Shown: positions 4,083 to 32,162, numbered from the stretch's first letter. The stretch is DNA of 35,518 nt from Candidatus Thorarchaeota archaeon (GCA_048882385.1 JBHLRQ010000025.1:1-35518), one strand, 5' to 3'. Numbers and translations are program-made. Notes: generated by a model from the letters alone, not told the origin.

Positions 4083-4229
4083 ATCTTGAGGACAAAGTAG
4101 TCCGAGCATGCCGCATCTTCATTTGATCGACATGTGAAGAAAGTGAAATATTGTTTGGCTTTTGTCAAAAATCAAACAATTTATAAGAGTTTGAACTTAA
4201 TTCGTGATGCACTGGAGGAAACAGCCGCG

Positions 4230-7019: not shown

Positions 7020-7028
7020 GTGATTTAA

Positions 7029-7922: not shown

Positions 7923-7988
7923 TATTCATCAAAGATTTAAATTCCAGAAGTTCCATCTCTAAAATACAATAAGGGGTGGGTTGAAACA

Positions 7989-9044
7989 TTGTCACAAGAT
8001 GAGTCTGTTGAGTTTGTGATTGCTGGTGTAAGAAAGGCTGAAGCTAGACTTTTAGGTGAGGCTGAAGAGTTTTTTCGACGTGCAATAAAGCTGAACCGCG
8101 AGAATGCTGTAGCTTGGTACAATCTTGGAATTCTTCTAGCGGAACAAAATCGCAAAGAAGAAGCCTCAAAGGCTTATACTGAAGCCATAGCTTCAACTCC
8201 TGGTAGCATATTCGAAGATGCATGGTTGAACCTCGCAATGACAAGAATCGATACTGGTGGAGCTCAATCTTGCATTGATACTATCGATGAAGCTATTCAA
8301 TTCATTCCGCAATCTGACTCCCTCTGGAACACAAAGGGTGTGTTGCATCAAGCCCTTGATCAGCTTCAAGAGGCAGAGGAATGCTATAGAAAGGCAATTT
8401 CAATAAATCCGAACTTTGATCTTGCATGGGTGAATCTTGCCAAAATCTATGCGAGGACAGGGCGACGAGAGGAAGCAAAAGATGCGCTGAAGAAAGGATA
8501 CAGTGGTAGACAGTTTACTAGTCTCGTTGATTTGGAAAAACAGTGGGCTGCAACGAGAGATGAGCTTTCTGATATATTGCCAGATTGGTTTACCGAAACG
8601 ATGGAGTCTTCCTATCAAGATATAATGGCTCAGGAAAAAATGGGGGGTGCTATTCTTGCTCCTCGTTCATATAAGAATCCAATTACGAGAAGCTACATTC
8701 AGAAGACTCTTTCTAAGCATCCTACTAACGCACAGCTTTGGATGGAGCTTGGTAAATTTCAGATGGAATCGGAGGAATATGATGATGCTGAAAAATCATT
8801 CAAACGAGCACTTCGACTTAACGCAAAGATTCCTCGAGCTTCATTCAATCTTGGAATGATATTCATGAAGAAAGGGATGCAGATTGAAGCTGTTGAAGCA
8901 TTTACGGTTGAAACTGTTAATTCTCCAAATAGTGATGATGTTTGGGAACTTCTAGGAAAGTCATTGGAAATGATTGGGAAGATGAAAGAAAGTAGAGCTG
9001 CTCTAGACAAGGCAGAAGCTCTCAGAAATTCTAGACAGTTTTGA
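7989..9044 (+). CDS. Tetratricopeptide repeat protein
   Basis: Repeated AWYNLG/LWNTKG/AWVNLA/ASFNLG...A..Y..AI..NP motifs in two blocks. Confidence 0.88.
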   Translation: MSQDESVEFVIAGVRKAEARLLGEAEEFFRRAIKLNRENAVAWYNLGILLAEQNRKEEASKAYTEAIASTPGSIFEDAWLNLAMTRIDTGGAQSCIDTIDEAIQFIPQSDSLWNTKGVLHQALDQLQEAEECYRKAISINPNFDLAWVNLAKIYARTGRREEAKDALKKGYSGRQFTSLVDLEKQWAATRDELSDILPDWFTETMESSYQDIMAQEKMGGAILAPRSYKNPITRSYIQKTLSKHPTNAQLWMELGKFQMESEEYDDAEKSFKRALRLNAKIPRASFNLGMIFMKKGMQIEAVEAFTVETVNSPNSDDVWELLGKSLEMIGKMKESRAALDKAEALRNSRQF

Positions 9045-9103
9045 AAATATTCAGAAGAACTTATCAAAGGCTTGTGGAGATATTTTCATTAGGAGGAATT
9101 CCA

Positions 9104-10441
9104 ATGGGGGGAAAACCCTCAAATCTGTATGAATGGATTAAACTAGGTAAGAAATTATCGAACGAAGGCAATCACAAAGAAGCTGAGAAGACTTTCAAAC
9201 AAATCACTAAGGACTACAAGGATGACGCTTTGTCGTGGTATAATCTTGGTGTCTTTTATGGTAAGATGAATGATCCCAAGAATGCAATCAATTGTTTTGA
9301 GACTGCTTTGAAGTTACAGCCCGAATTTCCTCAGGCGGTAATTAACATTGGTTGGCATACTACGAGTCTTAAGGGAGGAAAAGACGGAATCAAGAAACTA
9401 CAGAAGTTGAAAAGGGATACTGAAACATATGCAATGGTATGGAGTGCAATTGGTGTTCTACACTTCAAACTCGAGGAATACAAAGCCGCTGAAAAGGCTC
9501 TCCGAACGGCAGTTGAACTTAAACCAAAATACGAACATGCTATAATCAATCTTGGTCGAGTACTTCAAGCTCTTAAGGATGAAGACGCAGCAGCTGGAGT
9601 TATTCGTGAGCATTTTGGAGAATCTGCTGCACAAAGACACAAAGCTTTCCTAGGCGTAGGAACATATCCCACTGTAGGATATATGTTGCCAATAAGCGAT
9701 AGAGAAATCGAATTGGCTGAGATAGCTGCAGAGTTTCCGGATGCTGCAAATTCTTGGTTCGAGCTTGGCAATGAGCAGATAGCGAATGGGCGAAATAGCA
9801 AGGCTGCTGAATCTTTTAGGAAAGCATCAGATGCAGATCCTAATCACTTTGAAAGCATTTCTAATCTTGGAGCTGCCCTCTTGAATGGATGTGAGTATGA
9901 GGAATCTATTGCAGCTCTGAAAAGGGCACAGGAATTGAAGCCAGACCATGAGGCACCAATTAGGAATCTAGCAATGATCTATGAAAAGATTGGTGAATAC
10001 GAGAATGCAATGTCATACCTAGATAACCTCTCTTCTTTGCTCCCAGGTGATGATACTCTAAAAATTGACAAAGCGCGAATGCTTCTAAATCTGGACAAGA
10101 AAGAGGAAGGTTCTCAAGCATTATGCGAGCTCTTCAACATCAATTACGATCCCGAGGATCTAAAAATGTGGAAATCAGTAGGTCTTGAACTATACAATCG
10201 GGATTATCTTGATGGAGCTGATATTTGCTATCATGGGGCGTTAGGAGTAGACAGGACTGATCCAGAAACCAATTTCTACATCGGAGTAATCGCCTTGAAA
10301 CAAGGTCGATTGATGATGGCCGAAGTGATGCTTTGGCAAGCATTGACTCGAGATAAGAATCTGGTTACACGATTGAAACAGGTGCCTGGATGGGAGGTTC
10401 TGCTACAATCTGGAATGCTTAGAATGATAATTGGAAGTTGA
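9104..10441 (+). CDS. Tetratricopeptide repeat protein
   Basis: Multiple TPR units (SWYNLG, VWSAIG, SWFELG, SISNLG). ATG 9104 follows AGGAGG (the ORF track starts at TTG 9041). Confidence 0.88.
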   Translation: MGGKPSNLYEWIKLGKKLSNEGNHKEAEKTFKQITKDYKDDALSWYNLGVFYGKMNDPKNAINCFETALKLQPEFPQAVINIGWHTTSLKGGKDGIKKLQKLKRDTETYAMVWSAIGVLHFKLEEYKAAEKALRTAVELKPKYEHAIINLGRVLQALKDEDAAAGVIREHFGESAAQRHKAFLGVGTYPTVGYMLPISDREIELAEIAAEFPDAANSWFELGNEQIANGRNSKAAESFRKASDADPNHFESISNLGAALLNGCEYEESIAALKRAQELKPDHEAPIRNLAMIYEKIGEYENAMSYLDNLSSLLPGDDTLKIDKARMLLNLDKKEEGSQALCELFNINYDPEDLKMWKSVGLELYNRDYLDGADICYHGALGVDRTDPETNFYIGVIALKQGRLMMAEVMLWQALTRDKNLVTRLKQVPGWEVLLQSGMLRMIIGS

Positions 10442-10523: not shown

Positions 10524-11405
10524 TTGGTGTTCTGTGTGAAACTCCCCGTAATAGTGGTCCATGGTGGTGCGACTGTCTTTGATGAAAAGTACCACGATGA
10601 GATTCTCGTAGCAATAAAAACCGCTGCAGAGAGGGGGATGTGTGCTCTTGAGAATGGGGGATCCGCACTTGATGCTGTGGAAACCGCCATTTGGGTCCTC
10701 GAGGAAACTGAGCTCTTCACTGCTGGTAGGGGTGCAAGTAGAAACCTTGACGATGAGATTGAGCTTGACGCAGTCATTATGGATGGTGATCGACTAGAAA
10801 GTGGAGCTGTGATGGCTGTGAACGATATTGTCCATCCAATCTCACTAGCTCGATATGTCCTTGAAAGGACCTCTAATTCTCAAATTGTTGGTTCTGGTGC
10901 AAACCGCTTGTATAAACAGATGATTGCTGATGGGTATAGAGAAGAAACTCACGTTCATAGAACTGAGAGACCCCAGATTTCAAGAGAGTGTGACACTGTC
11001 GGAGCAGTTGCTGTTGATGAAACTGGTCGCATCGCTTCAGCATCTTCAACCAGTGGATGGCCTGGAAAGCTGCCTGGTCGAGTGGGCGATTCTCCGATTG
11101 TTGGCGCTGGAGTCTATGCCAACGATGTTGCAGGAGTAAGCTGCACAGGCAAGGGTGAGCAGATTCTTCGAATAACCATGGGTAGAATAGCTGTCTATCA
11201 TGTAGAACAGGGACTTTCAGTCCAAGAATCTGGTACTATTGTGATGTCTGAACTTCGTCAGAAGACTAGTGGTGAGGCTGGTCTTATTCTAGTTGACAAT
11301 CAAGGTGAAGTTGCAGTGCAGTTTGATACACCACACATGCCTGTTTCTATCTTTGCGAAAGGAATGGATGAGCCATATGTTGCCATGAAACCCTCTTGGC
11401 CTTAA
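10524..11405 (+). CDS. iaaA: Isoaspartyl peptidase / L-asparaginase (Ntn hydrolase, asparaginase 2 family)
   Basis: VHGGA, ALDAVETA..LE, ELDA, autocleavage site D|TVGAVA, STSG, GRVGDSP, TGKGE. The true start may be GTG 10536. Confidence 0.9.
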   Translation: MVFCVKLPVIVVHGGATVFDEKYHDEILVAIKTAAERGMCALENGGSALDAVETAIWVLEETELFTAGRGASRNLDDEIELDAVIMDGDRLESGAVMAVNDIVHPISLARYVLERTSNSQIVGSGANRLYKQMIADGYREETHVHRTERPQISRECDTVGAVAVDETGRIASASSTSGWPGKLPGRVGDSPIVGAGVYANDVAGVSCTGKGEQILRITMGRIAVYHVEQGLSVQESGTIVMSELRQKTSGEAGLILVDNQGEVAVQFDTPHMPVSIFAKGMDEPYVAMKPSWP

Positions 11406-12601
11406 CCGTCGATAAGCCGTTTCTCTCCCTTGATTTTTTTGATTTCTGTTATGTCCTGACTCACTTCAAGACACCCGAGATACTTTCCACTACTGTTTCG
11501 GACTGCAAAGTATCTGATGTGTATAGCTCTTCCTCTCAAGTTGATCCAAAACTCTGCTGAATCTCTTTTTCCAGCTCTAAAATCATCTAAGATTTCTTGG
11601 ACCCTATCTATACTGTCTTTGGGGTGACAGAGTTGAACACTTCTTCCAATAACTGCTCGAGATCGTACAAAGATGCGGTTTGGTGATTCACTAAAGAATC
11701 GAACTCTATCATGATCATCAACAAAGGTTGTATCTACTGGCAAATGATTAAACAGCAGTTCCAACTGTTCAAGTGTCAGAGTACCGCTGCCAAATGTGAC
11801 TTCACCACTTTCAGATACACCTACTGCTTTTTCTAAAACTTCTCTCTTCGGTTGTGGAGTGTAACTACAGTAGCCAATGTCATCAAAATCTTGGGCCACT
11901 ACATCCCAATCCCTTTCCGAAAAAATCCTCAGTGCTGCTGGGAACAAAATATTGTTCTCTTTGTAAAAATGGTCCGCCAATTTCTCAGATAATGCAGCTA
12001 CAGCATCATCCATTTTCATGATGTTCTTTATGAGTTTAGGATCCTTTTCTGAGTTCAGACTGAATATCTTTTTCTCCAGGGTGTGGATCTCTTGATGTTC
12101 TGACCACATTGCTGATGGAGGTCCAGTCAATCCGTGTTTTTCTAACACTGGAAAAACTGCGTTTTCTTCTCGTTGGTAATGTGATTCTGATTCTATGAAG
12201 AATTCAATGAGTTCTTGCACTCTAGCCAAAAAATCAGGTGTTGACTCCAATTCACCAGTGGATATTGAGTTGACGAGACTATTCAATTCATTGATAAATT
12301 CCATAAGCAACGTGTGCTCAGACATGAGAGTGTGGACAGGATGACCTGAAGTTTCAAGGGGTTTTTGATTCTGTACTTCAACTCTGAATAATGAGCTTTG
12401 AATCTTTTGCATTTGATTAAGATCCTTTTGTGGAACTCCTTCGTCGAGTAATTCTTTCTCAAAGTAGGAGAACTCAGCAGGTGTGACTACACCGAGAATT
12501 TCTGAAAATGATTTTGCAATTTCATCAAGATCATCTCTCGCCTGGATTTTCTTGATTATTTTCTTGAAATCATCCATCCTCTTAGTGATCATTAGATTCA
12601 C
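11402..12601 (-). CDS. DUF438 + hemerythrin-like + PAS domain protein
   Basis: GHPVHTLMSEH, HYQREEN..FP, MWSEH, HFYKENNILFP (hemerythrin-like); C-terminal PAS_10-type LPVDTTFVD...R..IGRSVQLCHP. Confidence 0.88.
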   Translation of the reverse strand: MNLMITKRMDDFKKIIKKIQARDDLDEIAKSFSEILGVVTPAEFSYFEKELLDEGVPQKDLNQMQKIQSSLFRVEVQNQKPLETSGHPVHTLMSEHTLLMEFINELNSLVNSISTGELESTPDFLARVQELIEFFIESESHYQREENAVFPVLEKHGLTGPPSAMWSEHQEIHTLEKKIFSLNSEKDPKLIKNIMKMDDAVAALSEKLADHFYKENNILFPAALRIFSERDWDVVAQDFDDIGYCSYTPQPKREVLEKAVGVSESGEVTFGSGTLTLEQLELLFNHLPVDTTFVDDHDRVRFFSESPNRIFVRSRAVIGRSVQLCHPKDSIDRVQEILDDFRAGKRDSAEFWINLRGRAIHIRYFAVRNSSGKYLGCLEVSQDITEIKKIKGEKRLIDG

Positions 12602-12613
12602 GACGAGGATATT

Positions 12614-13348
12614 TTACACAACTGCCTTGATATTTCCTTTTACCCCAATCTCGAATGTTCTCAATGGAATATTCAGACCAGTGTTGAGAATCGCTTGAGC
12701 GACCATTCTAGCGAGTCCATGACAACATGGCACCTCCATGTGAACTACTGAAACATCTGTAACATCATTAATTCTGAACATCTCAGTTAGTTTTATCAGA
12801 TTCTGTTGAGCGTCCTCAAACTTCGGACAGACTAGAATTGCTGTCTTATTCTTGAGAAAATCATCGTGTATCGAAGTATAGGCTAGAGCAGCACAGTCTG
12901 CAAGTATCAAAAGACTCGCGTTTTTGAGGGCTGGATGTTGTGTACTTAAGAGCTTGAGTTTGATAGGCCAGTGAGTCAAAGCAGATTCTTTGGGCTTCAA
13001 CACTGACTCAGGGAGCAGATGATCTGGTCCATCATGTTCTCCTTCGGAGTAGGTGAACGTTTCACTTCCTGAACAACACACATCTTGTTGTGCGAGCTTG
13101 GTTTTGCGAATGTTCTCTTTTGCAGCTTCTTCATCAAAGGGTAAGGTTTCTACCTCTCTCAGAGTCAAGGCTCCTTCTGGACACTCGCCCAAACAAGCGC
13201 CGAGTCCATCACAATATGTTTCTGATACAAGACGTGCTTTTCCATCGATGATCTGTAGTGCTCCTTCTGCGCATCCTGGGACGCAATTTCCACAGCCTGT
13301 GCAAAGATCTTCGTCGATATGAATCATCAACCTCTTGACAGTACTCAT
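12614..13348 (-). CDS. 4Fe-4S dicluster (ferredoxin-like) domain protein
   Basis: CTGCGNCVPGC and CDGLGACLGECP, plus the C-terminal motifs WPIKL, ADC, CPK and MEVPCC typical of the family found next to hcp/DUF438 genes. Confidence 0.88.
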   Translation of the reverse strand: MSTVKRLMIHIDEDLCTGCGNCVPGCAEGALQIIDGKARLVSETYCDGLGACLGECPEGALTLREVETLPFDEEAAKENIRKTKLAQQDVCCSGSETFTYSEGEHDGPDHLLPESVLKPKESALTHWPIKLKLLSTQHPALKNASLLILADCAALAYTSIHDDFLKNKTAILVCPKFEDAQQNLIKLTEMFRINDVTDVSVVHMEVPCCHGLARMVAQAILNTGLNIPLRTFEIGVKGNIKAVV

Positions 13349-13412
13349 TCTACCAGACCTACTTCTTAATGATAGTTAATTCTTGAATAGTAGCTGCTTT
13401 TAAAAATATAGT

Positions 13413-13430
13413 AGTTACCAAATGGTAAGT
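13413..13430. promoter_or_regulatory. Putative HxlR operator in the divergent promoter
   Basis: AGTTACCA-AA-TGGTAAGT palindrome directly after an AT-rich TATA-like stretch (13398-13410) and before the HxlR start. Confidence 0.5.
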
Positions 13431-13434
13431 GTTG

Positions 13435-13833
13435 ATGATGACAAGCCGATCGAAAGAAGCAGTTGAGATGTGCCCTGTATTTGCCGCATCTAGGATCTTG
13501 GGAAAGCGATGGTCGATCCTAATCATACAGGTCTTGTTGAGACCTGAAGCATCAATTGGATTGAGATTCCATGAGCTTCAAAAAGAGTTAAGCTGGGTGA
13601 GTCCGAAGATTTTGACCCAACGACTACGTGAACTACAAGAAAACGAAATACTCACTCGAACGGTTGACGCAAGTAACATTCCTCCTGCTGTTTGGTACAC
13701 ATTGACAGAGAAAGGAAAGGATCTTCAATCCACACTCGAAGCGATGCAGACGTGGGGTCAAAAACATGGTGGACACGTTGTAGCTGTATGTGAACGGAAA
13801 GGATTCGCACACTGCCATGAGTGTCAACATTAA
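13435..13833 (+). CDS. HxlR/DUF24 family winged-helix transcriptional regulator
   Basis: CP...ILGKRW, RFHELQ, SPKILTQRLREL, PPAVWYTLTEKG; extra C-terminal C-x7-CHEC. Confidence 0.9.
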   Translation: MMTSRSKEAVEMCPVFAASRILGKRWSILIIQVLLRPEASIGLRFHELQKELSWVSPKILTQRLRELQENEILTRTVDASNIPPAVWYTLTEKGKDLQSTLEAMQTWGQKHGGHVVAVCERKGFAHCHECQH

Positions 13834-18921: not shown

Positions 18922-19455
18922 CTATGTTGTCATTGAGAGACCGAATGGCTTACGAATCAGATTCCCAAGCCCGAGACCAACAAGGAAATAGTAACCATAA
19001 AAGCTCAGACCAAAACCTGCACCTGTAGGAGCGCCTATCATTCCTGTTAGAAATGGTAGCACGTCTTGGATGTTGAATGGAATCACTGCAACAATGCTGT
19101 TGCCATATATTGTGTTCATCAAACCAAAGACAAGAATGAGGGGGATATAGAATACACACATGGGTTTACATCTATCTGTCATCATCGAGCTTTGGATTCT
19201 CATGATTCGTCCTTGGTCTGCTTGAACCTGTTCGAGTAGAACAGGATCCAAGGTCTTCCTTGCTTCATTGAACTTCTCTCGCCATGCTTGGATATCTTCC
19301 ATATTCTGTTGCATCCTCTCCATATCTGTAAACCGTCTAGTTGCCCAGATTGACATCAAGGCAAGCCCAATCGCCACGAGTGTCACAAAGACTGTTGACA
19401 ATGGCATTACTGCAACAGGTGAGAAAAATGCTAAGATGTCGCTCCAAATATCCAT
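18922..19455 (-). CDS. DUF106 / EMC3-TMCO1-Get1 (Oxa1 superfamily) membrane protein
   Basis: TM1, cytoplasmic coiled coil (DMERMQQNMEDIQAWREKFNEARK), KPM before TM2, YGYYFL in TM3. ATG 19455 preferred over TTG 19482. Confidence 0.82.
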   Translation of the reverse strand: MDIWSDILAFFSPVAVMPLSTVFVTLVAIGLALMSIWATRRFTDMERMQQNMEDIQAWREKFNEARKTLDPVLLEQVQADQGRIMRIQSSMMTDRCKPMCVFYIPLILVFGLMNTIYGNSIVAVIPFNIQDVLPFLTGMIGAPTGAGFGLSFYGYYFLVGLGLGNLIRKPFGLSMTT

Positions 19456-20107
19456 GTAGCTTCGCCTAGGTTGCTGATTCAACCTGAGCTCATTTTAAGG
19501 ATTGTCTTTTACACATCTCGAATCATTAGTTATCCACAGAGCAATTTTATGATGTTCTAATTTCAAATTGCATCTCGCTCGTTTGCACAATTTTGAACGT
19601 AGGTCCCATCAACCCAACATTACTGAGTCCCATTTTGAATGGCGGCGTATACCCAACCCTGTAAATATATCATGTTGAAATTCTTCTATTGTTTCTACTT
19701 CTCATTGTCAAAAATAGCTGATTCGGTATGATACATACTGTCTCCTAAGGGGGTCCCATAGGCCCGGCTTTAATTTTGTACACGCTGTTCTTTTTCTATT
19801 GTACACGTTATAAATTTAGCAAATGATTTCGATGTCATCGTACTGTAAACGTTGAGATATTTCGCGCCAATCTATTATCATGGAAGCTATTTCAAAAGGA
19901 TGTCAGCTAATATGTATTATATTTAAGCAAATAGATGTTAATTTGTGCAATATTCAATTCTTAATTTTCAATTTTGTGCAATAAATGACAGCTTTCATTG
20001 AATAGTATATGGCGCGAAAAGCTTACGTTTACCCATAGAAACCCTATTCCTTTATATTTAGGTTAGCGTGTACTTCTTCTGTCTACCGCCGGGAGGGTAC
20101 GACGCAC

Positions 20108-23595: not shown

Positions 23596-23685
23596 TGTTT
23601 GATTTGTGATGTGGAATGGCCCTAATAATCTTGGTCAAACATTAGTAAACGCTAAGTCATCACTCGAGAAAATGAAATTGTATGT

Positions 23686-23764
23686 GCGTGTACTGGTCCG
23701 CATCTTCACAACCGATGGGTTTACTCCGGGCCAGCTCGGAGGTCTTCTTTGGACCAGTACACGC
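23686..23764. repeat. 14-bp perfect inverted repeat enclosing two small hairpins
   Basis: GCGTGTACTGGTCC (23686-23699) and GGACCAGTACACGC (23751-23764). Confidence 0.7.
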
Positions 23765-24059
23765 TTACTCGCAAGTTCCGAATGAGTACACGTTTAATCC
23801 CATGGAGTACATCATATGAGGAGGAGAGAAGTGGGATGGAGAGAGAATGCTGTTTCACTCGGGGTGCGAGATCCCATTACTCAGGCCAGTGTCTTTCATC
23901 TGTTCCTGGACCTTGGAACAGTGCGTTTACTGTAGATATATACTGTACACTATTGTATATTGGACCTTGTAATATCCAGAGTTACTGATTTTCTCGCAAG
24001 TTTAATTACACACAAGAGGATTCAGTTTGTATTAGATTGCGTTGTAGGAGCAGGTGTAA

Positions 24060-24260
24060 ATGATTAGAATTTTGAAATTAGCCATTGCAATAGCTACCAT
24101 AGCAATCGGCTTGGCGGCTCTTTTTATCATAACGATCCCCTCAGCATTTTCAGCAAGTGTTACTGGCATTCCAAGCCTTGCAATAGTAGCTATAGTTGGA
24201 CTTGGTGCATTCATATTCGTGAGTGTTGTTTATGTTTATAGTTTCAAATCAAAGCGTTGA
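24060..24260 (+). CDS. Small two-TM membrane protein
   Basis: AGGTG SD, two hydrophobic helices, basic tail FKSKR. Confidence 0.6.
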   Translation: MIRILKLAIAIATIAIGLAALFIITIPSAFSASVTGIPSLAIVAIVGLGAFIFVSVVYVYSFKSKR

Positions 24261-25392
24261 TTTGCAACTACACTAACCTTGACTCAGGTAGTGTGGCTTG
24301 ATACTCATTATCATTAGTGTGTGTTCCCGTCGTTCTGATTGTATTCGTTGCTATCTAAAGAGGTAAGATGTAGTCTGTTCTACCTGCTGGGTTTCATTAG
24401 ATAGAAACGTTGTAACTTCGATCAAGTGATGAATAATTGCAGTGTGGTGAGAATCAAGAGCATCGGGTCAGACAGAAGCTTTTTTGGGTGTCTAACTCTC
24501 GTATTATATATTAACCATGGTTAATTTATTTCAATTCCAACACTCAATTCTTGACGATTTTTCGAAACATAATATTAACCCATCATTGATTTTTTTAAAT
24601 GATTGTTAAAATATATATTAGCCCTTCAATGGTACAATTTGTTCCAAAATGAATTTTTTATAGGCATCATTAAATTGATAAAATTACAATCAGTTTTTTT
24701 ACAACTATACAAGAATTCAAGCTTCTTTCAAGTATGTAATCCAACTTTCGCGACTTCTGAAATACTTCTTATACTCACTTTCTGTGCTATAAAGTCTATT
24801 CGATAACAAAGCTAGTAAACAATCCTGGTTCTTCACGCAAAAAACTAGGGATACACACATTCTGAGTATGAGTATATCACTATTCCCGATCTACACATTC
24901 TTTATGTACTCAAAAAATGAATACAGGTTGAATGCAACATTCTAATTGATTTTTTAGAGTACAGTGTTATTAGTTGATTATGTTGGATTCAGGATATTTC
25001 AATAATGGTGATGCCAATGGTGATAACTTCCTCTGAAATGTTTTTTGAATTTTGAATAAGGGGAAGTAAAGGAAAATATTAGATGATTGTAAAAATAATA
25101 TGATATATATTAAACCTTTCGAAAAATGGACACTCAGAAATTCTTTGCTTTCGATTTTTCGAAAACCTATGGAAATTGACAATTTGATGTCTTGAGGATG
25201 CACGAGAAGTCACAGAATATACTACTATACTTTGCATAAGCTGAATGAAATCACTCTTGGATTAGAAGTTCTAATTATGTCATTTAGCCTAATCACATAT
25301 CATTTATATCTCGAATCAGAGTATCGACATGTACAATACAAAGTCGCTAGGGACTCAGTGTCACAAACAATTGTCCTGAATCGGAAGCAAGG

Positions 25393-25767
25393 TTGGCAAA
25401 ACAAATGGTTACGATCTTCATAGTAGATGACGAAGCAATCCTTCATCGTCTATACAAAGATGTCTTTAGTATCAAAGGACATGAAGTCGTAGCAGATGCT
25501 TTTGATGGTGTAGAAGCTGTTGAGAAATACATGCAACTGGATCCTAAACCTGATGTAATCATTCTTGATCATAGGATGCCTAATCGTGACGGCATGGCTA
25601 CGATGAAGGAGATTTTGAATCTTGAACCAGGGGCAAAGATTGTCTTCATTAGTGCAGATGCCAATGTTAGAGAACAAGCTATGACCAATGGTGCTTCCAG
25701 TTTTGGTTTAAAGCCGGTGACAATTCGTCATATGCTTGACCTTGTTGAAAGTGCAGTGTCAGACTAA
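25393..25767 (+). CDS. Stand-alone response regulator receiver (CheY-like)
   Basis: IVDDE, phospho-acceptor ILDHRMP..DG, ISA, LKP all intact. Confidence 0.92.
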   Translation: MAKQMVTIFIVDDEAILHRLYKDVFSIKGHEVVADAFDGVEAVEKYMQLDPKPDVIILDHRMPNRDGMATMKEILNLEPGAKIVFISADANVREQAMTNGASSFGLKPVTIRHMLDLVESAVSD

Positions 25768-26194
25768 GAATTCTTGCGACATTAATCAATCAGATTCTAG
25801 GGGGCAATTTTTCCTGAGTGAAGTACCGCATTCTGGTGTGTTGGTAGCCGGAGAGATACCTTTACTTCGTGTTCTACTAAAGATGGCCTTAGAAGATAGT
25901 GGATTTGATGTATGTGGCGAGGCTAATGACTCTCAAGAGCTTCTAGTCTTGTGTCAGAGTCAGAAGCCATCAGTTGTCCTTATTGATTTCAGCATGGACC
26001 AGATTGAACTTGTACGTCTCATTGAAAACATCCTTGATATTGACCCCGTGATTGCTGTCGTCGTTATTTCGGATCCAATTGATGGACAGGGAGAAACTGT
26101 GCTTGCAGCCGGAGCTAGGGCGTATCTTCAAAAACCATTCAGTATGTTCGATATGACTGATATGGTTAGGAAAGTAAAGCCAATATACAGTTGA
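25736..26194 (+). CDS. Atypical stand-alone receiver domain protein
   Basis: Receiver fold (VCGEAND, VVLID, VIS, AGARAYLQKPF), but VAGE replaces the acidic VDD. The start is uncertain, possibly CTG 25814 or GTG 25838. Confidence 0.82.
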   Translation: MTLLKVQCQTKNSCDINQSDSRGQFFLSEVPHSGVLVAGEIPLLRVLLKMALEDSGFDVCGEANDSQELLVLCQSQKPSVVLIDFSMDQIELVRLIENILDIDPVIAVVVISDPIDGQGETVLAAGARAYLQKPFSMFDMTDMVRKVKPIYS

Positions 26195-26196
26195 TT

Positions 26197-26961
26197 TTAT
26201 TCTGGCAAACGTGCGTCAGGGAACGCTGAGATTCCATCAGATCCTATCTTGAACATGATGGGCCGCATAGCATGATTGGCACCACGCATTTTTACAACCC
26301 TTATCGTTCGAAGATAATCTCCAGCAGAATAGAGCATATTGAGCTTGACCACTCCATCACATATGAAGAACGGCATCTCATCACTCTGTGCGTTTTCACC
26401 AGCCCTCAATTCATGCGTTAAGACTATTGTTGATTCCCAGTCTACTATCTCGCGTATAAATCCATAGACTAGCTGACGAATCTCAGATAGGTTTCCTGCG
26501 AGTTCTAAAAGGGGTCCTAACCCATCAACCACAATTCTCTTTGCATTTGTTTCTGATGCCTTCTTCCTTACTAGTTCTGCCAGTCTAGGGACAGTAAATG
26601 GTTGTTCACGAAGTAGCGGATGATCAAATCCAATAACATATTCGTAACTTGTTTCGGTTGGCACAAGTTTCAAGGTTCCGCTTAGTATTGTCAGGGTTCC
26701 TGAGTCTATCGCGTCCTTTGGATTCCAACCAAAATCAGTCATGTCCTCTACAATCATGTCCGAAGTCTGGTCTAACGAAAGCAGAAGTCCATTTTCACTG
26801 TTTGCAACCCCCTCAAAGAGGAAATGCCAAGCCAGGATACTCTTTCCTGTACCCGGACCTCCTGCTAGTAATGTTGAACGACCTTTGACGTAACCACCCT
26901 CAAGTAGTTCATCAAGACCCGTTACGCCTGTACTCACACGAGTTTTCGACATGCGAATCAC
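26197..26961 (-). CDS. Single-domain KaiC-like (RAD55-type) ATPase
   Basis: RVSTGVTGLDELLEGG, Walker A GGPGTGKS, Walker B IVVDG, CDGVVKL, VVKMRG. Probable start ATG 26952. Confidence 0.9.
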   Translation of the reverse strand: MIRMSKTRVSTGVTGLDELLEGGYVKGRSTLLAGGPGTGKSILAWHFLFEGVANSENGLLLSLDQTSDMIVEDMTDFGWNPKDAIDSGTLTILSGTLKLVPTETSYEYVIGFDHPLLREQPFTVPRLAELVRKKASETNAKRIVVDGLGPLLELAGNLSEIRQLVYGFIREIVDWESTIVLTHELRAGENAQSDEMPFFICDGVVKLNMLYSAGDYLRTIRVVKMRGANHAMRPIMFKIGSDGISAFPDARLPE

Positions 26962-27156
26962 TAGCCATTCAATGAAGTGTTCAGTTTTAACCTTTCAGAA
27001 AGAACGATACAATTAGAATACATCCTCGAAACCTTAATTTCTAATCAACCCAGATTACGCGGAGAAAAGCACTAGAAGCCTTTTGATTGTCATAACCAGC
27101 GAGAACCAAGAGGAGCAGGATTTAGCAAGGCTTGCCAATTTCACGGATGATGTACG

Positions 27157-28737
27157 TTGACAGACGACCCGATAATACCGGAGTTCATGATGTATAGTGT
27201 AGGTCTAGAGGACTCTGAATTAGAAGAACTACGGAATCGTCTTTCAGTACAATCCCGCTCCACAAAAGATCGGTTCATGCTTTTTACAGATATCTTAATC
27301 GAATATGTTGGGAGTGGAGAGTGGAGAAACAGAAGTCCTTCATTCCTTGCAATGTGTGCTAAAGCCTGTTTTCTTAGGGGAATGTATGGATACAATCAGA
27401 TTTTAGCTAAGGATTCTCAAAATCTCACCTGCAAAGGATACGCTGCTGCGGCATATTGCAGACAAAGTCTTGATCCAAGATGGCTAAACAACCTTAGAAA
27501 TATTACAAACCAAACATGGCAAGCAAAAGACTACATTTCATTTGCTGAGCTATCTGGTCAATTAGCATCCGTACTAATTGATTTAGGCTACGCGGATCAT
27601 GCCCGACAAGTTGCTTCTGAAAGCATTGAAAAAGTGACTCTTGCCACCGCAAAAGACACAGCTATCCGTAATATGGTTCAGGCTGCTCTCTTAAGTGCTA
27701 GAATAATCCTTGCATTCATTTCAGTGTCTTCAGAATCTCGTGAAGAAGGACACATTCGTCTTGATTCTGCTCAAGATACAGCAACACATCTTGATCATCA
27801 GCTAGCTTTGAATGACATCAAGTTATACAAAGGCCGAGCTCTTGAAGATGTCTTTGAACATGATAGAGCGCTCCCCTTGGTGACATCAGCACTTCGAAAA
27901 TATGAGAAAATGGGTTATTCTTATGGAGTGGCAATAGCACAGAATCTTAGAGGAGTAATTCAACTAAATATGGGTCAACTACAGGAAGCCCGTGACCAGT
28001 TTGAGGAACTACTTATTATTCAACAGCAACTCAATAATCAGGTAGGACTTGCGAAAACTCTGATTAATGTTGGAGAGATTGATAGGGCTCTTGACCAGAT
28101 TGCCCAGATGGAAACGTACAATCGCAGAGCTCTGGAGATAAGTCAAGAAGCTGAGTACATGAGAGGGATCGCCACAGCTACTGTGAATTTAGGTGATGTC
28201 GCACTTATGAAAGGCGATGCTGAAGAAGCACTGAGATTTTACAACGAGGGAATAAAAATCGCAGACGGTGCAGGGATGAAAGCAACCTTAGCTTTGACTC
28301 TTTTTCAAGCTGGGGATGCTAATTTTATTCTACATAGATTCGATGAGGCAATTGCTTTCTATCGCAAGGTTAAGAAACTGTCTACTGAAATCGCTCATCT
28401 TCTCTATGCTTTCAACGCGAAAGCCAGCGAGGTTGTAACAATTTGGGAGGATGGTGGAAAACCAAAAAACGACCTCTTGAAGAAATTGCGATCCATCTTA
28501 GGTAAGCTAAAAGACTGGAGTGAATCACCAGATTCTGAGATGATGAGAAATGTCAGAAGAACTGTTTTGGAAGATCCAGCTAGTGACAGTGACCTCTGTG
28601 TGTTCTTTGATGGTGAGAAAAGCTTCGAATGCAGAGTAGAGAGGAAGGGTCTTAGGAAGGAGTGTTTTGGAAATCTCTATTGGAAAGGAGGGCTTTGTCC
28701 TTACTTCAAAGAATTCATGACTCACCTTGAAGAGTAA
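27157..28737 (+). CDS. TPR protein (long-linker GPSM/MalT/Rap-like TPRs) with a Cys-rich C-terminus
   Basis: About 40-aa repeats (GVAIAQNLRG, GLAKTLINVG, GIATATVNLG, TLALTLFQAG); C-terminal CX10CX10CX10C. Confidence 0.85.
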   Translation: MTDDPIIPEFMMYSVGLEDSELEELRNRLSVQSRSTKDRFMLFTDILIEYVGSGEWRNRSPSFLAMCAKACFLRGMYGYNQILAKDSQNLTCKGYAAAAYCRQSLDPRWLNNLRNITNQTWQAKDYISFAELSGQLASVLIDLGYADHARQVASESIEKVTLATAKDTAIRNMVQAALLSARIILAFISVSSESREEGHIRLDSAQDTATHLDHQLALNDIKLYKGRALEDVFEHDRALPLVTSALRKYEKMGYSYGVAIAQNLRGVIQLNMGQLQEARDQFEELLIIQQQLNNQVGLAKTLINVGEIDRALDQIAQMETYNRRALEISQEAEYMRGIATATVNLGDVALMKGDAEEALRFYNEGIKIADGAGMKATLALTLFQAGDANFILHRFDEAIAFYRKVKKLSTEIAHLLYAFNAKASEVVTIWEDGGKPKNDLLKKLRSILGKLKDWSESPDSEMMRNVRRTVLEDPASDSDLCVFFDGEKSFECRVERKGLRKECFGNLYWKGGLCPYFKEFMTHLEE

Positions 28738-28862
28738 ATTTTATTCACAATCTATTCATAGATACGGTAACTTGCATCAGATTGAAGCAACGTGAATGCG
28801 CGACATATGCTTATATTCCAGTACAACGCAACTTCATCTGCGCAAGCAAGGGGACATCCGAT

Positions 28863-30242
28863 ATGAGCGCTGAAGGCGCAATTCCACCCCGTATTAGGGA
28901 TGCATTAGACTCAGCTGATGGCTACGTTTTGGTAGTTACAGGTAGACCTGGAACAGGTAAGACTCTATTTGTACATGAGGTCTTCAGACAATTCAAGGAT
29001 TCGTTGCTTATTCTTTCAAACGCTGAAGCAACAGCCGCTGCAGAAGAGGAATTATCATCGCTACCTCGTTGGTCTGAAAGACATGCCGTAGCTCACTATT
29101 GGAGAACAATGGATGATTCTGAAATTCACGAAGCCAATCTTCATGAGCAACTGTCACGATTACTTGGCGGCGCATCCCTGAAAGAAGACCATTCAGTTGC
29201 TATTATCGACTCTTGGTCAGACTTTATCATGCCAATTCGCTCAGAAATGCAGTATGAAATTCAACAATCATTGATATTCGCAGCTAGGAAAGAAGGTAAG
29301 AATCTTGTTCTCGTAACAGAGGGAGATTGGGAAGAGAGCTACCAACGACCACTGTATCACTCTGCAGATGCAATCGTTCGACTAAGAAAGCTGAGAAAAG
29401 ATCAGCGACTTTACCGCCAGTTGACTATTGAGAAGATGAGAACACTGCCTATTGAACAGGATTCTTTCCTGTTTACTTTGAACAAAGGTCGATTCACGTA
29501 CATTCCATGGTATGTGCATCAGTTTCCTCCAATAACAGTGGAGCGAGAATCAATCAAAGATCCATCAAACTCACGAATATCCTCAGGAAACAGGAGTCTG
29601 GATATGATTCTTGGAGGAGGATTTGAGAAGGGTAAACTCAGTCTGATTGAAGTGGAAAATCTAGCAGCGCCATATCTGGAAACAATCTATATTCCTTTTC
29701 TCTCAAATCAACTCCAATTGGGTCGACCTGCTGTAATTCTTCTACCGGAAGGTTGGTCTCCTGATCAATTCATGCAGGGACTCAGTCATTTCATTGATCC
29801 AAAGCTAATACAACAACAAGTAGTATTCTTTGGTAGACATGCATTGGGTGCGAGAAATGTACGTACAATTGATGATGATCCCTGGAAAACACTCCAAGAG
29901 ATTCGTTATGAAGGAACACAATTAGAACGTGAGTTTGACACGCAAGTAACTGAACTATTTGCACTTGATACACTAGAAAACAAATACGGTATAACTGACC
30001 TTAAGGGAATGATGGCTGAGATTACCGCATCACTACCAGCCACTTCAAGAGCAACAGTCACAATTTTGAGCCAAGAACAAGGCTTGAAAAGTGGTTCTCT
30101 TGCTCATAGTGTACATCTGAGAGTGCAAGAGCTGAGTGGTGTACTGAGTGTGTGTGGTGTAAATCCTAAAACTAACTACCTTGCTGTGCGACCCTTACTA
30201 TCCAAGGGTTTTCTTGACTATGATTTAGTACCAATAGTATAG
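28863..30242 (+). CDS. GvpD-like double-domain KaiC-family ATPase
   Basis: IPPRI...LVVTGRPGTGKT, IIDSW, ADAIVRL, IEKMR, FLFTLNKGRF; the second RecA domain (RISSGNRSLDMILGGG) lacks Walker A. ATG 28863 preferred over TTG 28782. Confidence 0.85.
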   Translation: MSAEGAIPPRIRDALDSADGYVLVVTGRPGTGKTLFVHEVFRQFKDSLLILSNAEATAAAEEELSSLPRWSERHAVAHYWRTMDDSEIHEANLHEQLSRLLGGASLKEDHSVAIIDSWSDFIMPIRSEMQYEIQQSLIFAARKEGKNLVLVTEGDWEESYQRPLYHSADAIVRLRKLRKDQRLYRQLTIEKMRTLPIEQDSFLFTLNKGRFTYIPWYVHQFPPITVERESIKDPSNSRISSGNRSLDMILGGGFEKGKLSLIEVENLAAPYLETIYIPFLSNQLQLGRPAVILLPEGWSPDQFMQGLSHFIDPKLIQQQVVFFGRHALGARNVRTIDDDPWKTLQEIRYEGTQLEREFDTQVTELFALDTLENKYGITDLKGMMAEITASLPATSRATVTILSQEQGLKSGSLAHSVHLRVQELSGVLSVCGVNPKTNYLAVRPLLSKGFLDYDLVPIV

Positions 30243-30253
30243 AGGTGTGTGAA

Positions 30254-30364
30254 ATGAAGGCTAAGACAAGAGAACTGTGTCCATGGCAAAAGGCTAATCT
30301 CTTGACAGAGTCTGAGTTTCATCCCTACACCCTCTCAAAAATACTACCGCCGGTGGTAAGATGA
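30254..30364 (+). CDS. Putative 36-aa peptide (MKAKTRELCPWQKANLLTESEFHPYTLSKILPPVVR)
   Basis: GAGGTG SD at 30242-30247, ATG 30254, and its TGA overlaps the next start as ATGA (30361-30364). Below the ORF-track cutoff. Confidence 0.45.
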   Translation: MKAKTRELCPWQKANLLTESEFHPYTLSKILPPVVR

Positions 30365-30741
30365 ACACTGACAGCAAAAAAATACTGGTCGTTGACGATG
30401 AGGAGATGACCACTGAACTAGCAAAAACATTCCTGGAAAAACACGGATTTACGGTGGTAATTGCCAAAGATGGAGAAGAAGCACTCAAAATCGCAGAGGA
30501 TGAGGTTCCTGACCTTATTCTCTTAGATGTTATGCTTCCCACAGTTGATGGTTTTGAAGTCTGCAAACAGCTGAAAGCAAAGAACACTTTCAAGAAAACT
30601 CCTATCCTCATGTTTACTGCAAAAGGTCTCAGCAGTGATATGGAAAGAGGAGAGGCGGCTGGCGCAGATGAGTACATTGTGAAACCATTCTCTGGCAAAG
30701 CTTTGGTGGAGACAATTAGAAAACATCTAGAAATAACCTAG
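30361..30741 (+). CDS. Stand-alone response regulator receiver
   Basis: VVDDE, LLDVMLP..DG, FTA, YIVKPFS all intact. Confidence 0.93.
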   Translation: MNTDSKKILVVDDEEMTTELAKTFLEKHGFTVVIAKDGEEALKIAEDEVPDLILLDVMLPTVDGFEVCKQLKAKNTFKKTPILMFTAKGLSSDMERGEAAGADEYIVKPFSGKALVETIRKHLEIT

Positions 30742-30755
30742 CGAGTGTAATCGAA

Positions 30756-31439
30756 ATGTCTGGTGAACCCTCTCAATCTCATGGGTCTCAATTCAGCATA
30801 GTCGACAATCTACTTACTAGACCGCCCAAGGGCTACGTTTTCCTTGTCATGGCTTCGCAGGATAGTCATTATGATCTTTTCATGCTTACTCTCATAAGAC
30901 GTGCTCTTGAGATGGGTTTGAACACTCTTGAAGTTGTTACAGAGGCTCGGAATCGATCATTGATGAATGAGCTCTCACAGATGCAGGGGAATGGATTCAA
31001 GATTATGGAAGTTGGATATGGTCAAGACACCCTAGGTGATTATACTTGCTCTCCGCACCTTCATGAAATCAACATACAGCTGAGAAGTCTACGAAAAGAT
31101 CTCACACCTAATTTGATTACATTTGAAGGATTGACACCCCTGTTGATAGATTTCTCAGCACGAGATGTTGTTCAATTTTTCAAAGAATGTGTTGAAGAGA
31201 GCATAAAGATTGGCTCAAATGAGTTCTACCTAGTCCATGCTGAAACTGCAGATCCTGTAACAATCAATCAGCTATACTCATTGGCACAGGGAATCATTAC
31301 TCTGACCACTTCCCGAGGAAAACACTATCTCACAGTAAAGAAATCAAAAGGTGTGGAGCTTCCTTACAATCCAATTGAATATGTACCAGTCATGTCGAGT
31401 GAAAAAAGATCTGATTGGAAAATCATCTGGAACTGGTAG
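30756..31439 (+). CDS. Inactivated KaiC/RecA-fold protein (DUF835/RAD55-like)
   Basis: Strand order and the motifs ITFEGLTPLL, LAQGIITL and VKKSKG match the KaiC fold; Walker A is replaced by ASQDSHYD. Confidence 0.68.
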   Translation: MSGEPSQSHGSQFSIVDNLLTRPPKGYVFLVMASQDSHYDLFMLTLIRRALEMGLNTLEVVTEARNRSLMNELSQMQGNGFKIMEVGYGQDTLGDYTCSPHLHEINIQLRSLRKDLTPNLITFEGLTPLLIDFSARDVVQFFKECVEESIKIGSNEFYLVHAETADPVTINQLYSLAQGIITLTTSRGKHYLTVKKSKGVELPYNPIEYVPVMSSEKRSDWKIIWNW

Positions 31440-32162
31440 TTAATCCAGGTCTACAACAAACTCCTCTTCTTCTTCTCTATCATCAGAGGATTTTCTTTCT
31501 TTAGGCCGCAGGTGTTGCCCTGAAAACATCCTTTCAAAGAGACGAAGTGCCTCTTGGACAGTCGATGTCCAAGTATCTTCTTCTACAGCATCATCCATTT
31601 TCTGTCTCACTGGATCAAGAAGAGACCGCACTTTCTGACAACTCTCATCATCCCACTGGGCTTCATCCATTATAGTTTCGATTTGCCGTATGATTTGACC
31701 TCTAAGTGATGCAAACCGCATCCTCTCTTCATCTAGATCTGTGAGTCGTTTGTTCACCTTGCCTAACTCTCTGAGAAGTCTTCTAACTGCGGCTACATCT
31801 GGTCTTGCTTCAGGAACAATGAATCCCTGGGGAATAACCAGTCGTCCTGTTTGTCCATGTCTTGTTAGACGCACAACAAAGGCATCTGGAAGGATAGTTG
31901 TAGATAGCCCAAATCTAACATTCAATCTATAATACACTCTATCCGGACCAAGTTCACTCTCACCGTGTTCTCTTTCTACAAGACCTGCTCTCTGAAGCGC
32001 TTCAAGATGTTTGAAAACTCCTCGAGGGGTTAAACCGAGCATTGTACTGAGTTCATAGGGATAGTGTGCTCGTTGAGCAAGAAGTCTAAGTATCCTTCTT
32101 CTTGTTTCGTTGCCTAGAGCTTTGAATACTCTGTCAAGATCACCTGGTCCTTCTTGCGACAT
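31440..32162 (-). CDS. ArsR-type wHTH + coiled-coil regulator resembling the archaeal heat-shock regulator Phr/HSR1 (COG1777)
   Basis: ALGNETRRRILRLL...ELS..LG...V.KHL..L..AGLV...GPDRVYY followed by a coiled coil. Confidence 0.82.
   Translation of the reverse strand: MSQEGPGDLDRVFKALGNETRRRILRLLAQRAHYPYELSTMLGLTPRGVFKHLEALQRAGLVEREHGESELGPDRVYYRLNVRFGLSTTILPDAFVVRLTRHGQTGRLVIPQGFIVPEARPDVAAVRRLLRELGKVNKRLTDLDEERMRFASLRGQIIRQIETIMDEAQWDDESCQKVRSLLDPVRQKMDDAVEEDTWTSTVQEALRLFERMFSGQHLRPKERKSSDDREEEEEFVVDLD

Follow-up and report, generated by a model that had tools for sequence, protein, structure and literature searches.

Introduction

In cyanobacteria KaiC signals by way of two kinases, SasA and CikA, and a regulator, RpaA, and pseudo-receiver domains take part in the same clock (KaiA, CikA). 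Haloarchaeal GvpD lowers the amount of the activator GvpE, and in Bacillus the Rap/RRNPP proteins, which contain tetratricopeptide repeats (TPR), act on Spo0F and ComA. For the archaea, Makarova, Galperin and Koonin reportedly proposed in mBio in 2017 that KaiC-like ATPases serve as signal transduction hubs; to our knowledge, this proposal has little experimental or evolutionary backing and few concrete partner sets. Here we describe a locus in which KaiC-family genes stand among genes for receiver (REC) domains and a TPR protein. It occupies positions 25393-31439 of a 35,518-nucleotide stretch of DNA from Candidatus Thorarchaeota archaeon (GCA_048882385.1 JBHLRQ010000025.1:1-35518), hereafter the window, which is the whole of contig C25 of a 3.7-Mb, 95%-complete genome (G000). 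This is a real, well-conserved signalling locus of Thorarchaeota without a kinase. On balance we think it probable that it encodes a two-tier module with no kinase of its own, in which a receiver–TPR core is joined by an optional trio of KaiC-family proteins that works with one of the three receivers, REC3.

Several of the ingredients have been described before. In the part of the survey by Galperin et al. (2018, PMC5847659) accessible to us, KaiC hubs are reported along with inactivated KaiC domains and with fusions of the KaiC-REC and REC-iKaiC types, and REC-only genes are placed near ArsR genes; stand-alone archaeal receivers predominate there and are thought to signal by protein–protein contacts, and Thorarchaeota are named only for an NtrC-type regulator. 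A screen in Haloferax volcanii, its report likewise accessible in part (PMC13464002), placed the single-domain KaiC-like protein CirA and the QarA two-component system in density-dependent control of shape and motility. The full texts searched (main texts) give no description of the present cluster or of an Asgard KaiC–GTPase neighbourhood. The KaiC-hub idea is already known; what the locus contributes is clean evolutionary evidence for the grouping of the parts, and the lead to the kinase is new.

Organisation and conservation of the locus

Open reading frame (ORF) calls and Pfam matches place seven genes in the block, in three transcription units, and bear out the gene list of an earlier interpretation of this DNA (the sequence-only reading). 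The first unit, on the + strand, comprises REC1 (25393..25767; PF00072, E 2.8e-20, 73 bits) and the atypical receiver REC2 (25736..26194; PF00072 over residues 35-144, E 9e-15, 55 bits). The second, on the − strand, is the gene for KaiC1, a single-domain KaiC-like ATPase (26197..26961; PF06745, E 6.7e-48, 163.5 bits against a cut-off of 26.6), which is convergent with REC2 at 2 nt and divergent from the TPR gene over 195 nt. The third runs on the + strand with short gaps through genes for the TPR protein (27157..28737, 526 aa; TPR_12 and other TPR Pfam models over residues 226-411), a GvpD-like two-domain ATPase (28782..30242, 486 aa; PF06745, E 2.6e-9, and PF07088, E 8.9e-6, 26.2 bits against a cut-off of 24), REC3 (30361..30741; PF00072, E 3e-30, 105 bits) and KaiCx (30756..31439), a P-loop-less protein whose KaiC fold is known from its predicted structure and which has no sequence-family match. 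Pfam scans of 34 window ORFs gave no histidine kinase and no che, arl/fla or gvp family, as the sequence-only reading had held, and no KaiA or KaiB family. That reading had also denied the window any DNA-binding output domain. This was mistaken: an ArsR/Phr-like winged-helix regulator gene adjoins KaiCx (31440..32162, − strand; PF01022, E 7.7e-9), and an HxlR regulator is encoded at 13429-13833.

The window proteins were mapped by tblastn onto 45 related loci, 720 kb in total, which belong to 16 genera of the family, giving a table of 46 rows with the window included. All 18 loci that carry the three KaiC-family genes (the trio) and are long enough, the window counted, have the seven genes in identical order and orientation; they come from 12 genera, and identities across them fall to 38-63%. 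The genes are not scattered in relatives, and the seven-gene arrangement is far beyond chance. Insertions are found only at junctions. A GNAT gene lies between the TPR and GvpD-like genes in L030, and ahead of ArsR there is an ABC transporter in L035 and a TrmB-MEDS gene in L028. The last of these (L028 11650-13077) encodes, in one genus, a TrmB-HTH/MEDS protein between KaiCx and ArsR, and its MEDS part is a weak KaiC match. The flanks of L030, L049 and L050 are different and the block is intact in all three; in L030 a beta-helix protein is encoded beside it. Wider synteny (geranylgeranyl reductase to DUF389 and LysE) is likewise retained in most genomes. A kinase is not a routine neighbour of the orthologous loci either, since kinase-like sequence is missing from the fetched flanks of 38 of the 45 and in the other seven lies at least 3 kb outside the block. 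We note that one bin (G003) holds two full copies of the block, L025 on contig C166 and L026 on contig C150, with TPR proteins 71% and 56% identical to that of the window. The L026 TPR protein groups with another genus on the tree described below and the bin carries 7% contamination, so that it may mix two organisms.

The KaiC-family genes are kept or lost as a set

KaiC1, the GvpD-like ATPase and KaiCx occupy three separate slots among the receiver and TPR genes. Of the 46 rows, 18 have all three genes intact and 25 have no intact copy of any of them; one locus (L025) has a frameshift in KaiC1 only, and two contigs are too short. The trio is all-or-none, then, in 43 of the 44 informative loci. 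KaiC1 and the GvpD-like gene are absent or reduced to a remnant in every one of the 25 trio-less loci, and genomes without KaiCx keep the locus as REC1-REC2-TPR-(REC3)-ArsR. Apart from two rearranged loci, REC1, REC2 and the TPR gene are intact throughout the trio-less set, which argues that these three are independent of the KaiC proteins. The same division is seen more widely in the family. A search with the TPR N-terminal domain found the REC1-REC2-TPR core in 68 of 85 other family genomes (20 of the 23 of high quality) and in all 16 genera, and a profile search found KaiCx, the marker of the trio, in 37 of 85.

Decay remnants in five trio-less loci show that the trio was lost and not gained. 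Pieces of all three genes survive in L074; L077 has a split KaiCx and a partial KaiC1, its GvpD-like gene being gone; L078 retains two trio remnants, and L079 and L073 one each. Mapped on a maximum-likelihood tree built from 45 rows of the TPR protein, the state of the trio needs 12 changes; well-supported branches force at least eight of them, and the tree is trio-bearing at its deepest branches. As the tree is derived from a protein of the locus, one deletion allele that had spread through recombination would be expected to cluster on it; no clustering was seen. Judged by this record of presence and decay, the three KaiC-family genes are mutually dependent and constitute one working unit. 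The pattern fits a hetero-complex of ‘live’ and ‘dead’ subunits.

The genes might instead share a locus with no functional tie, their order inherited within a young family and the KaiC genes being dispensable paralogs that are often lost. Such a history would agree with the wider synteny that most genomes also keep, and with the kinases of the genus, which come and go as well. It would, however, have to empty three slots together, so that over 8-12 events 43 of the 44 informative loci came to have either the complete intact set or no intact gene at all, to keep the block whole where its flanks differ (L030, L049 and L050), and to confine relaxation to REC3, as set out below. We find this scarcely credible.

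REC3 is coupled to the trio

REC3 is a CheY/PhoB-type receiver in which the acidic pair, the phospho-Asp, the Ser/Thr and the Lys are all conserved. It is intact in all 20 trio-bearing loci; of the 25 trio-less loci, 12 retain an intact copy, one has a broken copy and 12 have none. To follow its divergence, protein identity was set against TPR identity, with trio-bearing pairs as the baseline. On this measure, which is descriptive as the pairs are not independent, REC3 shifts by −6.8 points in mixed pairs and −12.0 points in trio-less pairs, the corresponding values being −1.3 and −2.6 for REC1, −0.9 and −2.4 for REC2, and −0.6 and −0.8 for ArsR. Sequence divergence and gene loss taken together, REC3 evolves faster or disappears after loss of the trio, and the relaxation is specific to REC3. 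The positions relaxed after trio loss (G29, V57, E117 and T118) are too few for an interface to be named. A complex prediction for KaiCx (40-row alignment) and REC3 (21 rows) reached 0.00, the mark being 0.32, and the result counts neither way.

The sequence-only reading had all of the receivers working with a mixed assembly of live and dead KaiC subunits. The all-or-none trio and the tie of REC3 to it sustain that proposal in part; REC1 and REC2, which persist without the trio, fall outside it.

Predicted properties of the KaiC-family proteins

The block mixes P-loop-bearing and P-loop-less KaiC-fold proteins, with four KaiC-type domains in three genes. Searched against structures, KaiC1 matches KaiC at 1e-42 and PH0284 at 3e-28. 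Its Walker A motif, GGPGTGKS, is invariant in 11 orthologs and its Walker B Asp is intact, the segment ‘ivvDgl’ aligning to the Walker B of KaiC. The segment ‘sldq’ aligns with ‘tfee’ of KaiC, and D-Q thereby replaces the catalytic Glu pair after strand 2, numbered E77/E78 in the KaiC of S. elongatus; in orthologs the segment is SLDQ or SLDE. KaiC1 is therefore a predicted nucleotide-binding protein in which the catalytic Glu pair is replaced.

The GvpD-like protein likely starts at the Met at residue 28 (about 28863), where its orthologs begin by alignment. The N-terminal domain has the P-loop GRPGTGKT; the C-terminal domain retains the KaiC entry motif ISxGNxSLDxxLGGGF and has no P-loop. The PF06745 match and the marginal PF07088 match are both confined to the N-terminal half. 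Orthologs are present in 14 of the 27 genomes of the genus. No match to PF20440 (GvpD_bR2) was obtained at E ≤0.01 with the protein of the window; more distant relatives in other families do match this model. A whole-genome search for gas-vesicle genes with PF00741 also gave no match, but its controls were equally silent.

KaiCx matched nothing in Pfam, NCBIfam or PDB sequences by profile search. Its AlphaFold2 model (pLDDT 87.2, pTM 0.85) was compared with known structures by Foldseek, where PH0284 (2dr3) ranked first with E 1.4e-12 and TM 0.72, followed by the KaiC CI domain and FlaH. The P-loop position reads ASQDSHYD, in agreement with the Walker-A-less KaiC protein that the sequence-only reading had suspected, and the Arg finger is unconserved, the Arg position of K-x-R-G being K, T or L. 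Because the model has a KaiC fold and both the P-loop and the conserved Arg finger are lost, KaiCx is, on the evidence of the model, an inactivated KaiC (iKaiC). It is the best-conserved protein of the block. We found 94 relatives with identity of at least 61%, and all those named by source are from Thorarchaeota except for one partial ‘Promethearchaeota’ record.

The core receivers and the TPR protein

REC1 has the canonical DD / D / S / K set, and an alignment of 12 orthologs confirms that all the residues of the phospho-chemistry are kept. Its identity across the family is 62-92%, and it is intact in 41 of the 43 loci that cover the REC1 slot. In REC2 the first acidic pair is G-E or G-D in all nine aligned orthologs; the Asp, Ser and Lys are retained. 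Its acidic pocket is thus incomplete despite the PF00072 match. The N-terminal 30 or so residues of the REC2 ORF are unconserved among orthologs, and on this alignment the true start is probably about 30 codons downstream.

In the AlphaFold2 model of the TPR protein (pLDDT 90.4), residues 8-470 form an all-helical solenoid, and the C-terminal module behind it carries four invariant Cys (C481, C492, C503 and C514). Pfam assigned no family to the N-terminal 225 residues or to the C-terminal 87. A search of the ESM Atlas with the Cys tail gave no usable match, and a full-length alignment was obtained with only 4 among 1.84 billion cluster representatives. In Foldseek the generic TPR proteins LGN and APC5 lead, and Rap chains rank 36th and lower, with TM of about 0.6 normalised to the Rap chain.

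These data bear on the idea of one seven-protein machine, in which all of the receivers would sit on a mixed KaiC ring and the TPR protein would act as scaffold, sensor or Rap-like phosphatase. The strict gene order is what such a machine would lead one to expect, as are the interleaving of the KaiC genes with the receiver and TPR genes and the co-stranded TPR, GvpD-like, REC3 and KaiCx genes with their short gaps; Rap is also found among the fold matches. Against this, REC1, REC2 and the TPR protein stay intact in trio-less loci, the divergence of REC1 and REC2 shifts by 2.6 points at most, the Rap matches stand behind LGN and APC5 and look generic, and there is no conserved gene for a Phr-like peptide. 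We therefore consider a single machine improbable. The parts of the sequence-only reading that made the TPR protein the primary KaiC scaffold and drew an analogy to Rap find no support, the first for the persistence of an intact TPR protein without the trio and the second for the rank and generic character of the fold match.

A small ORF between the GvpD-like gene and REC3 (30245..30364, + strand; 39 aa from GTG or 36 aa from ATG, without Pfam match) had been read as a small peptide of 36 aa. In 9 of 17 related loci no more than 36 nt separate the two genes, and where space allows the ORFs are unrelated, so that in the light of these alignments it is probably not a gene. As a Phr-like peptide it was rejected, since it shows no conservation in related loci.

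The ArsR/Phr-like regulator

The first base of the ArsR/Phr-like gene follows directly on the stop codon of KaiCx, the two genes being convergent, and its product has a long helical C-terminal part. The best NCBIfam match of the regulator is the Phr heat-shock regulator, at E 4.6e-15 and under the cut-off. The gene was detected in 39 of the 46 rows of the table and adjoins KaiCx in most trio-bearing loci; in L028 and L035 the inserted genes split it from the block. We regard the regulator as the likely output of the system.

This neighbour, and the kinship with GvpD, raise the possibility of a GvpD-like turnover device, in which the trio would act on the ArsR/Phr-like regulator and the receivers would be a separate pathway that shares the locus. 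The PF07088 match above its cut-off, the GvpD_bR2 matches of distant relatives and the adjacency of regulator and KaiCx genes are in line with it. The divergence of ArsR is, however, unchanged by trio loss (0.6 and 0.8 points), ArsR stays in nearly all trio-less loci, it is REC3 and not ArsR that relaxes and vanishes, and the GvpD-like protein of the window has no GvpD_bR2 match. Taken together these observations leave such a device only a slim chance.

A candidate kinase

The genome gives nine receiver matches, three of them in this block, along with 18 HATPase_c matches, seven weak HisKA matches and some 16 kinases. Because three of nine receiver domains are found here against so many kinases, the core most likely takes phosphoryl groups from kinases that are unlinked to it.

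Thirteen kinase genes of the genome were searched in genomes of the same genus. One of them, the C4 kinase (G000:C4:71826-73247, 474 aa), has the Pfam architecture PAS-PAS-HisKA-HATPase_c and is a cytoplasmic orphan with no receiver nearby. Orthologs with 56-73% identity are found in each of the 13 genus genomes that carry the trio and in none of the nine inspected ones in which the trio is fully lost. The kinase is also present in G008, where the trio is still decaying; the sister genome G016 has lost both trio and kinase. A 68%-identical fragment with a stop codon remains in G011. The other 12 kinases are universal in the genus genomes or vary irrespective of the trio. The C4 kinase is for now a candidate only for the kinase partner of the trio within this genus; an extension of the link beyond the genus was dropped, there being no clear orthologs there. 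We note that a 197-aa gelsolin-repeat protein (PF00626, E 3.4e-29) is encoded 5 kb upstream of the candidate kinase on the same contig (L096 4118-4711). Gelsolin-repeat genes belong to the eukaryote-like cytoskeletal genes of Asgard archaea.

The co-variation of trio, REC3 and kinase would fit equally well with a flow of information in the opposite direction, resembling clock output. The KaiC trio would then be a sensor or timer of energy, redox state or time that controls the PAS-PAS kinase, from which the signal would pass to REC3 and on to the core and regulator. In this reading's favour, the kinase is kept in G008 beside a decaying trio and both are gone in G016, so that the trio goes first; REC3 can outlive both trio and kinase. 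The C4 kinase, on the other hand, has no KaiB-like or pseudo-receiver domain (its Pfam domains are PAS, HisKA and HATPase_c only), Pfam scans of the window revealed no KaiB gene at the locus, and KaiC1 does not have the catalytic Glu pair needed for a slow KaiC-type ATPase or timer. Direction cannot be read from sequence. We consider reversed flow possible, if on the whole unlikely.

Proposed mechanism

Gene content, folds and motifs, together with the joint loss of the trio, the relaxation of REC3 and the co-variation of kinase and trio in one genus, point to the two-tier module as the probable arrangement. Its first tier would be a core of REC1, the degenerate REC2 and the Cys4-tailed TPR solenoid, usually encoded near the ArsR/Phr-like regulator. 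The TPR protein would be the partner of the receivers, which would draw on the unlinked kinases, and the regulator would carry the output. This core may be regarded as an old, self-sufficient receiver pathway to which the trio is added, or from which it is dropped, whole. In the second tier KaiC1, the half-dead GvpD-like protein and the dead KaiCx would act as one unit, most likely a mixed oligomer of the RecA/KaiC type, which would work with REC3 and, in this genus, probably also with the C4 PAS-PAS kinase. A likely path is that the C4 kinase phosphorylates REC3, that REC3 sets or reads a nucleotide-dependent state of the KaiC assembly, and that the assembly in turn would tune the message of the core to the regulator.

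A number of observations weigh against this two-tier model. We infer all of the physical contacts in it, and also the direction of the signal and the output. REC3 is intact in 12 trio-less loci with all of its phospho-residues kept, and must therefore also hold a role that is independent of the trio. KaiC1 has lost the catalytic Glu pair, and ATP hydrolysis by any of the subunits is only putative. The link between C4 kinase and trio amounts to three well-supported independent contrasts and five in total, all in the same direction (sign test, p = 0.25). G009 has the C4 kinase and the block locus was not found in its assembly, which is 83% complete; the best matches to the kinase outside the genus reach 46% identity at most, none being a clear ortholog; and the kinase-like genes on C81, C123 and C118 lie outside the 13 that were searched. 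ArsR, the likely output, is absent from the four g3 loci and from L030. The TPR tree is a gene tree of the locus itself and not a species tree, and the pairs behind the identity shifts are, as noted above, not independent.

The repeated joint loss of the trio can be read as a natural experiment, which indicates that three KaiC paralogs, one receiver and probably, in one genus, one kinase belong together, and that two receivers and the TPR protein can stand alone. It yields a defined set of five proteins from an Asgard archaeon for reconstitution, and it offers a testable answer to the question of the ‘missing kinase’.

Relatives outside the family

Beyond the family, weak matches to the KaiCx profile come from two further families of the phylum (E 1e-9 to 1e-25). 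In these two Asgard families the KaiCx-like gene lies beside single-domain KaiC and/or GvpD-like genes, and receivers are absent (L038 280-7200; L040 3514-12841; L044 270-6103; L045 307-4196). The place of the receivers and TPR protein is taken in these loci by Ras-, Arf- and RagA-type small GTPases, a longin protein and TackOD1-AsnC-HTH regulators. It is a further point against the two-tier model that the single-domain KaiC of these families is nearer to a paralog on contig C36 of our genome (38-40%) than to KaiC1 (33-36%); as an ortholog of KaiC1 it was rejected for this reason.

In a locus from another family of the phylum (L031 175-2128, G060), a 509-aa two-domain KaiC/GvpD-like protein is directly followed by a receiver 58% identical to REC3, and NosD/beta-helix proteins adjoin. 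The C36 locus itself (L080 7151-13239) represents a second KaiC system of the genome. Three consecutive genes there encode a thioredoxin/KaiB-like protein, a strong KaiC and a KaiC-like/DUF7504 protein, and genes of the Roadblock, WD40, HEAT and Ras families adjoin them.

A more general picture can be sketched, tentatively, and we would not expect it to hold in full. A mixed KaiC ring with only some nucleotide-binding subunits, an unlinked PAS-PAS kinase and REC3 would make up a self-contained, plug-in, ATP-driven switch or timer, a counterpart of KaiC-SasA/CikA-RpaA that has been bolted onto an older receiver–TPR pathway and can be discarded whole; elsewhere in Asgard archaea the same iKaiC and GvpD-like parts would be coupled to Ras/Arf/Rag-type GTPases and TackOD1 regulators. 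Were this true, the KaiC set would be a portable signal processor able to read either kind of molecular switch. The wiring of the same KaiC parts to small GTPases in other Asgard lineages is at present a hint, one that bears on the way in which eukaryote-like switches became part of archaeal signalling.

Other features of the window

PADLOC returned only generic REC, TPR and wHTH matches for the window, so that a defence system is not indicated, and Rfam and tRNA scans of the window gave no matches. Of 20 sequencing runs that contain this DNA, none is listed as RNA. The segment upstream of REC1 (23600-25390) has low GC (34-38%) and lacks any ORF that reaches 90 aa. The corresponding slot of relatives measures 1.5-4 kb and its genes vary (Fer4 protein, DUF4760, and a phage-type integrase in L027), which suggests an insertion hot-spot. 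Genes for a DUF438-hemerythrin-PAS protein, a 4Fe-4S ferredoxin-domain protein and the HxlR regulator are grouped at 11402-13833 and may encode a unit that senses redox state or oxygen. At 4134-10441, a MacB/FtsX-type permease (961 aa) with its ABC ATPase is followed on the same strand by two TPR-rich proteins of 351 and 466 aa. An EMC3/TMCO1-like membrane protein is encoded at 18922-19482 (PF01956, E 1.3e-18); members of this family are known chiefly in eukaryotes.

Comparison with known systems

Among the closest parallels are the archaeal KaiC hubs. As in the part of the hub literature accessible to us, KaiC-superfamily proteins, some of them inactivated, are linked here to receivers, and ArsR-type genes lie near REC-only genes. 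The link here is, however, one of neighbourhood and not of fusion, and it brings together four KaiC-type domains in three genes, three receivers and a lineage-specific TPR/Cys4 protein, a combination that sets it apart from the hubs as they appear in that part of the literature. The KaiC part of the present locus also differs in being an optional add-on that is lost as a set. Haloferax CirA and QarA, so far as their report was accessible, provide an experimental precedent for a KaiC-like protein and a two-component system that share a pathway; the genes there are unlinked and belong to another lineage, and the accessible part of the report mentions no iKaiC, GvpD-like or TPR partner.

With the KaiABC clock the locus has in common a KaiC-type assembly that would be coupled to a histidine kinase and a receiver, and REC2 may parallel the pseudo-receivers. 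It differs in having no KaiA or KaiB at the locus, and in place of a KaiC with two live P-loops there are a live single-domain protein (with D-Q), a half-dead two-domain protein and a dead one. PAS domains are the only sensory domains of the candidate kinase, and the evidence here implies no rhythm. The GvpD-like protein resembles GvpD in its length of about 480 aa and in the succession of an N-terminal P-loop domain and a P-loop-less domain. Unlike haloarchaeal GvpD, it is found in a window without gvp genes, does not match PF20440, and has receivers and KaiC paralogs as its putative partners in place of GvpE. The Bacillus Rap systems, finally, share with the locus a gene for a TPR solenoid beside stand-alone receivers; the TPR protein here exceeds Rap in size and ends in a Cys4 tail, no gene for a partner peptide is conserved, and its first 225 residues match no family.

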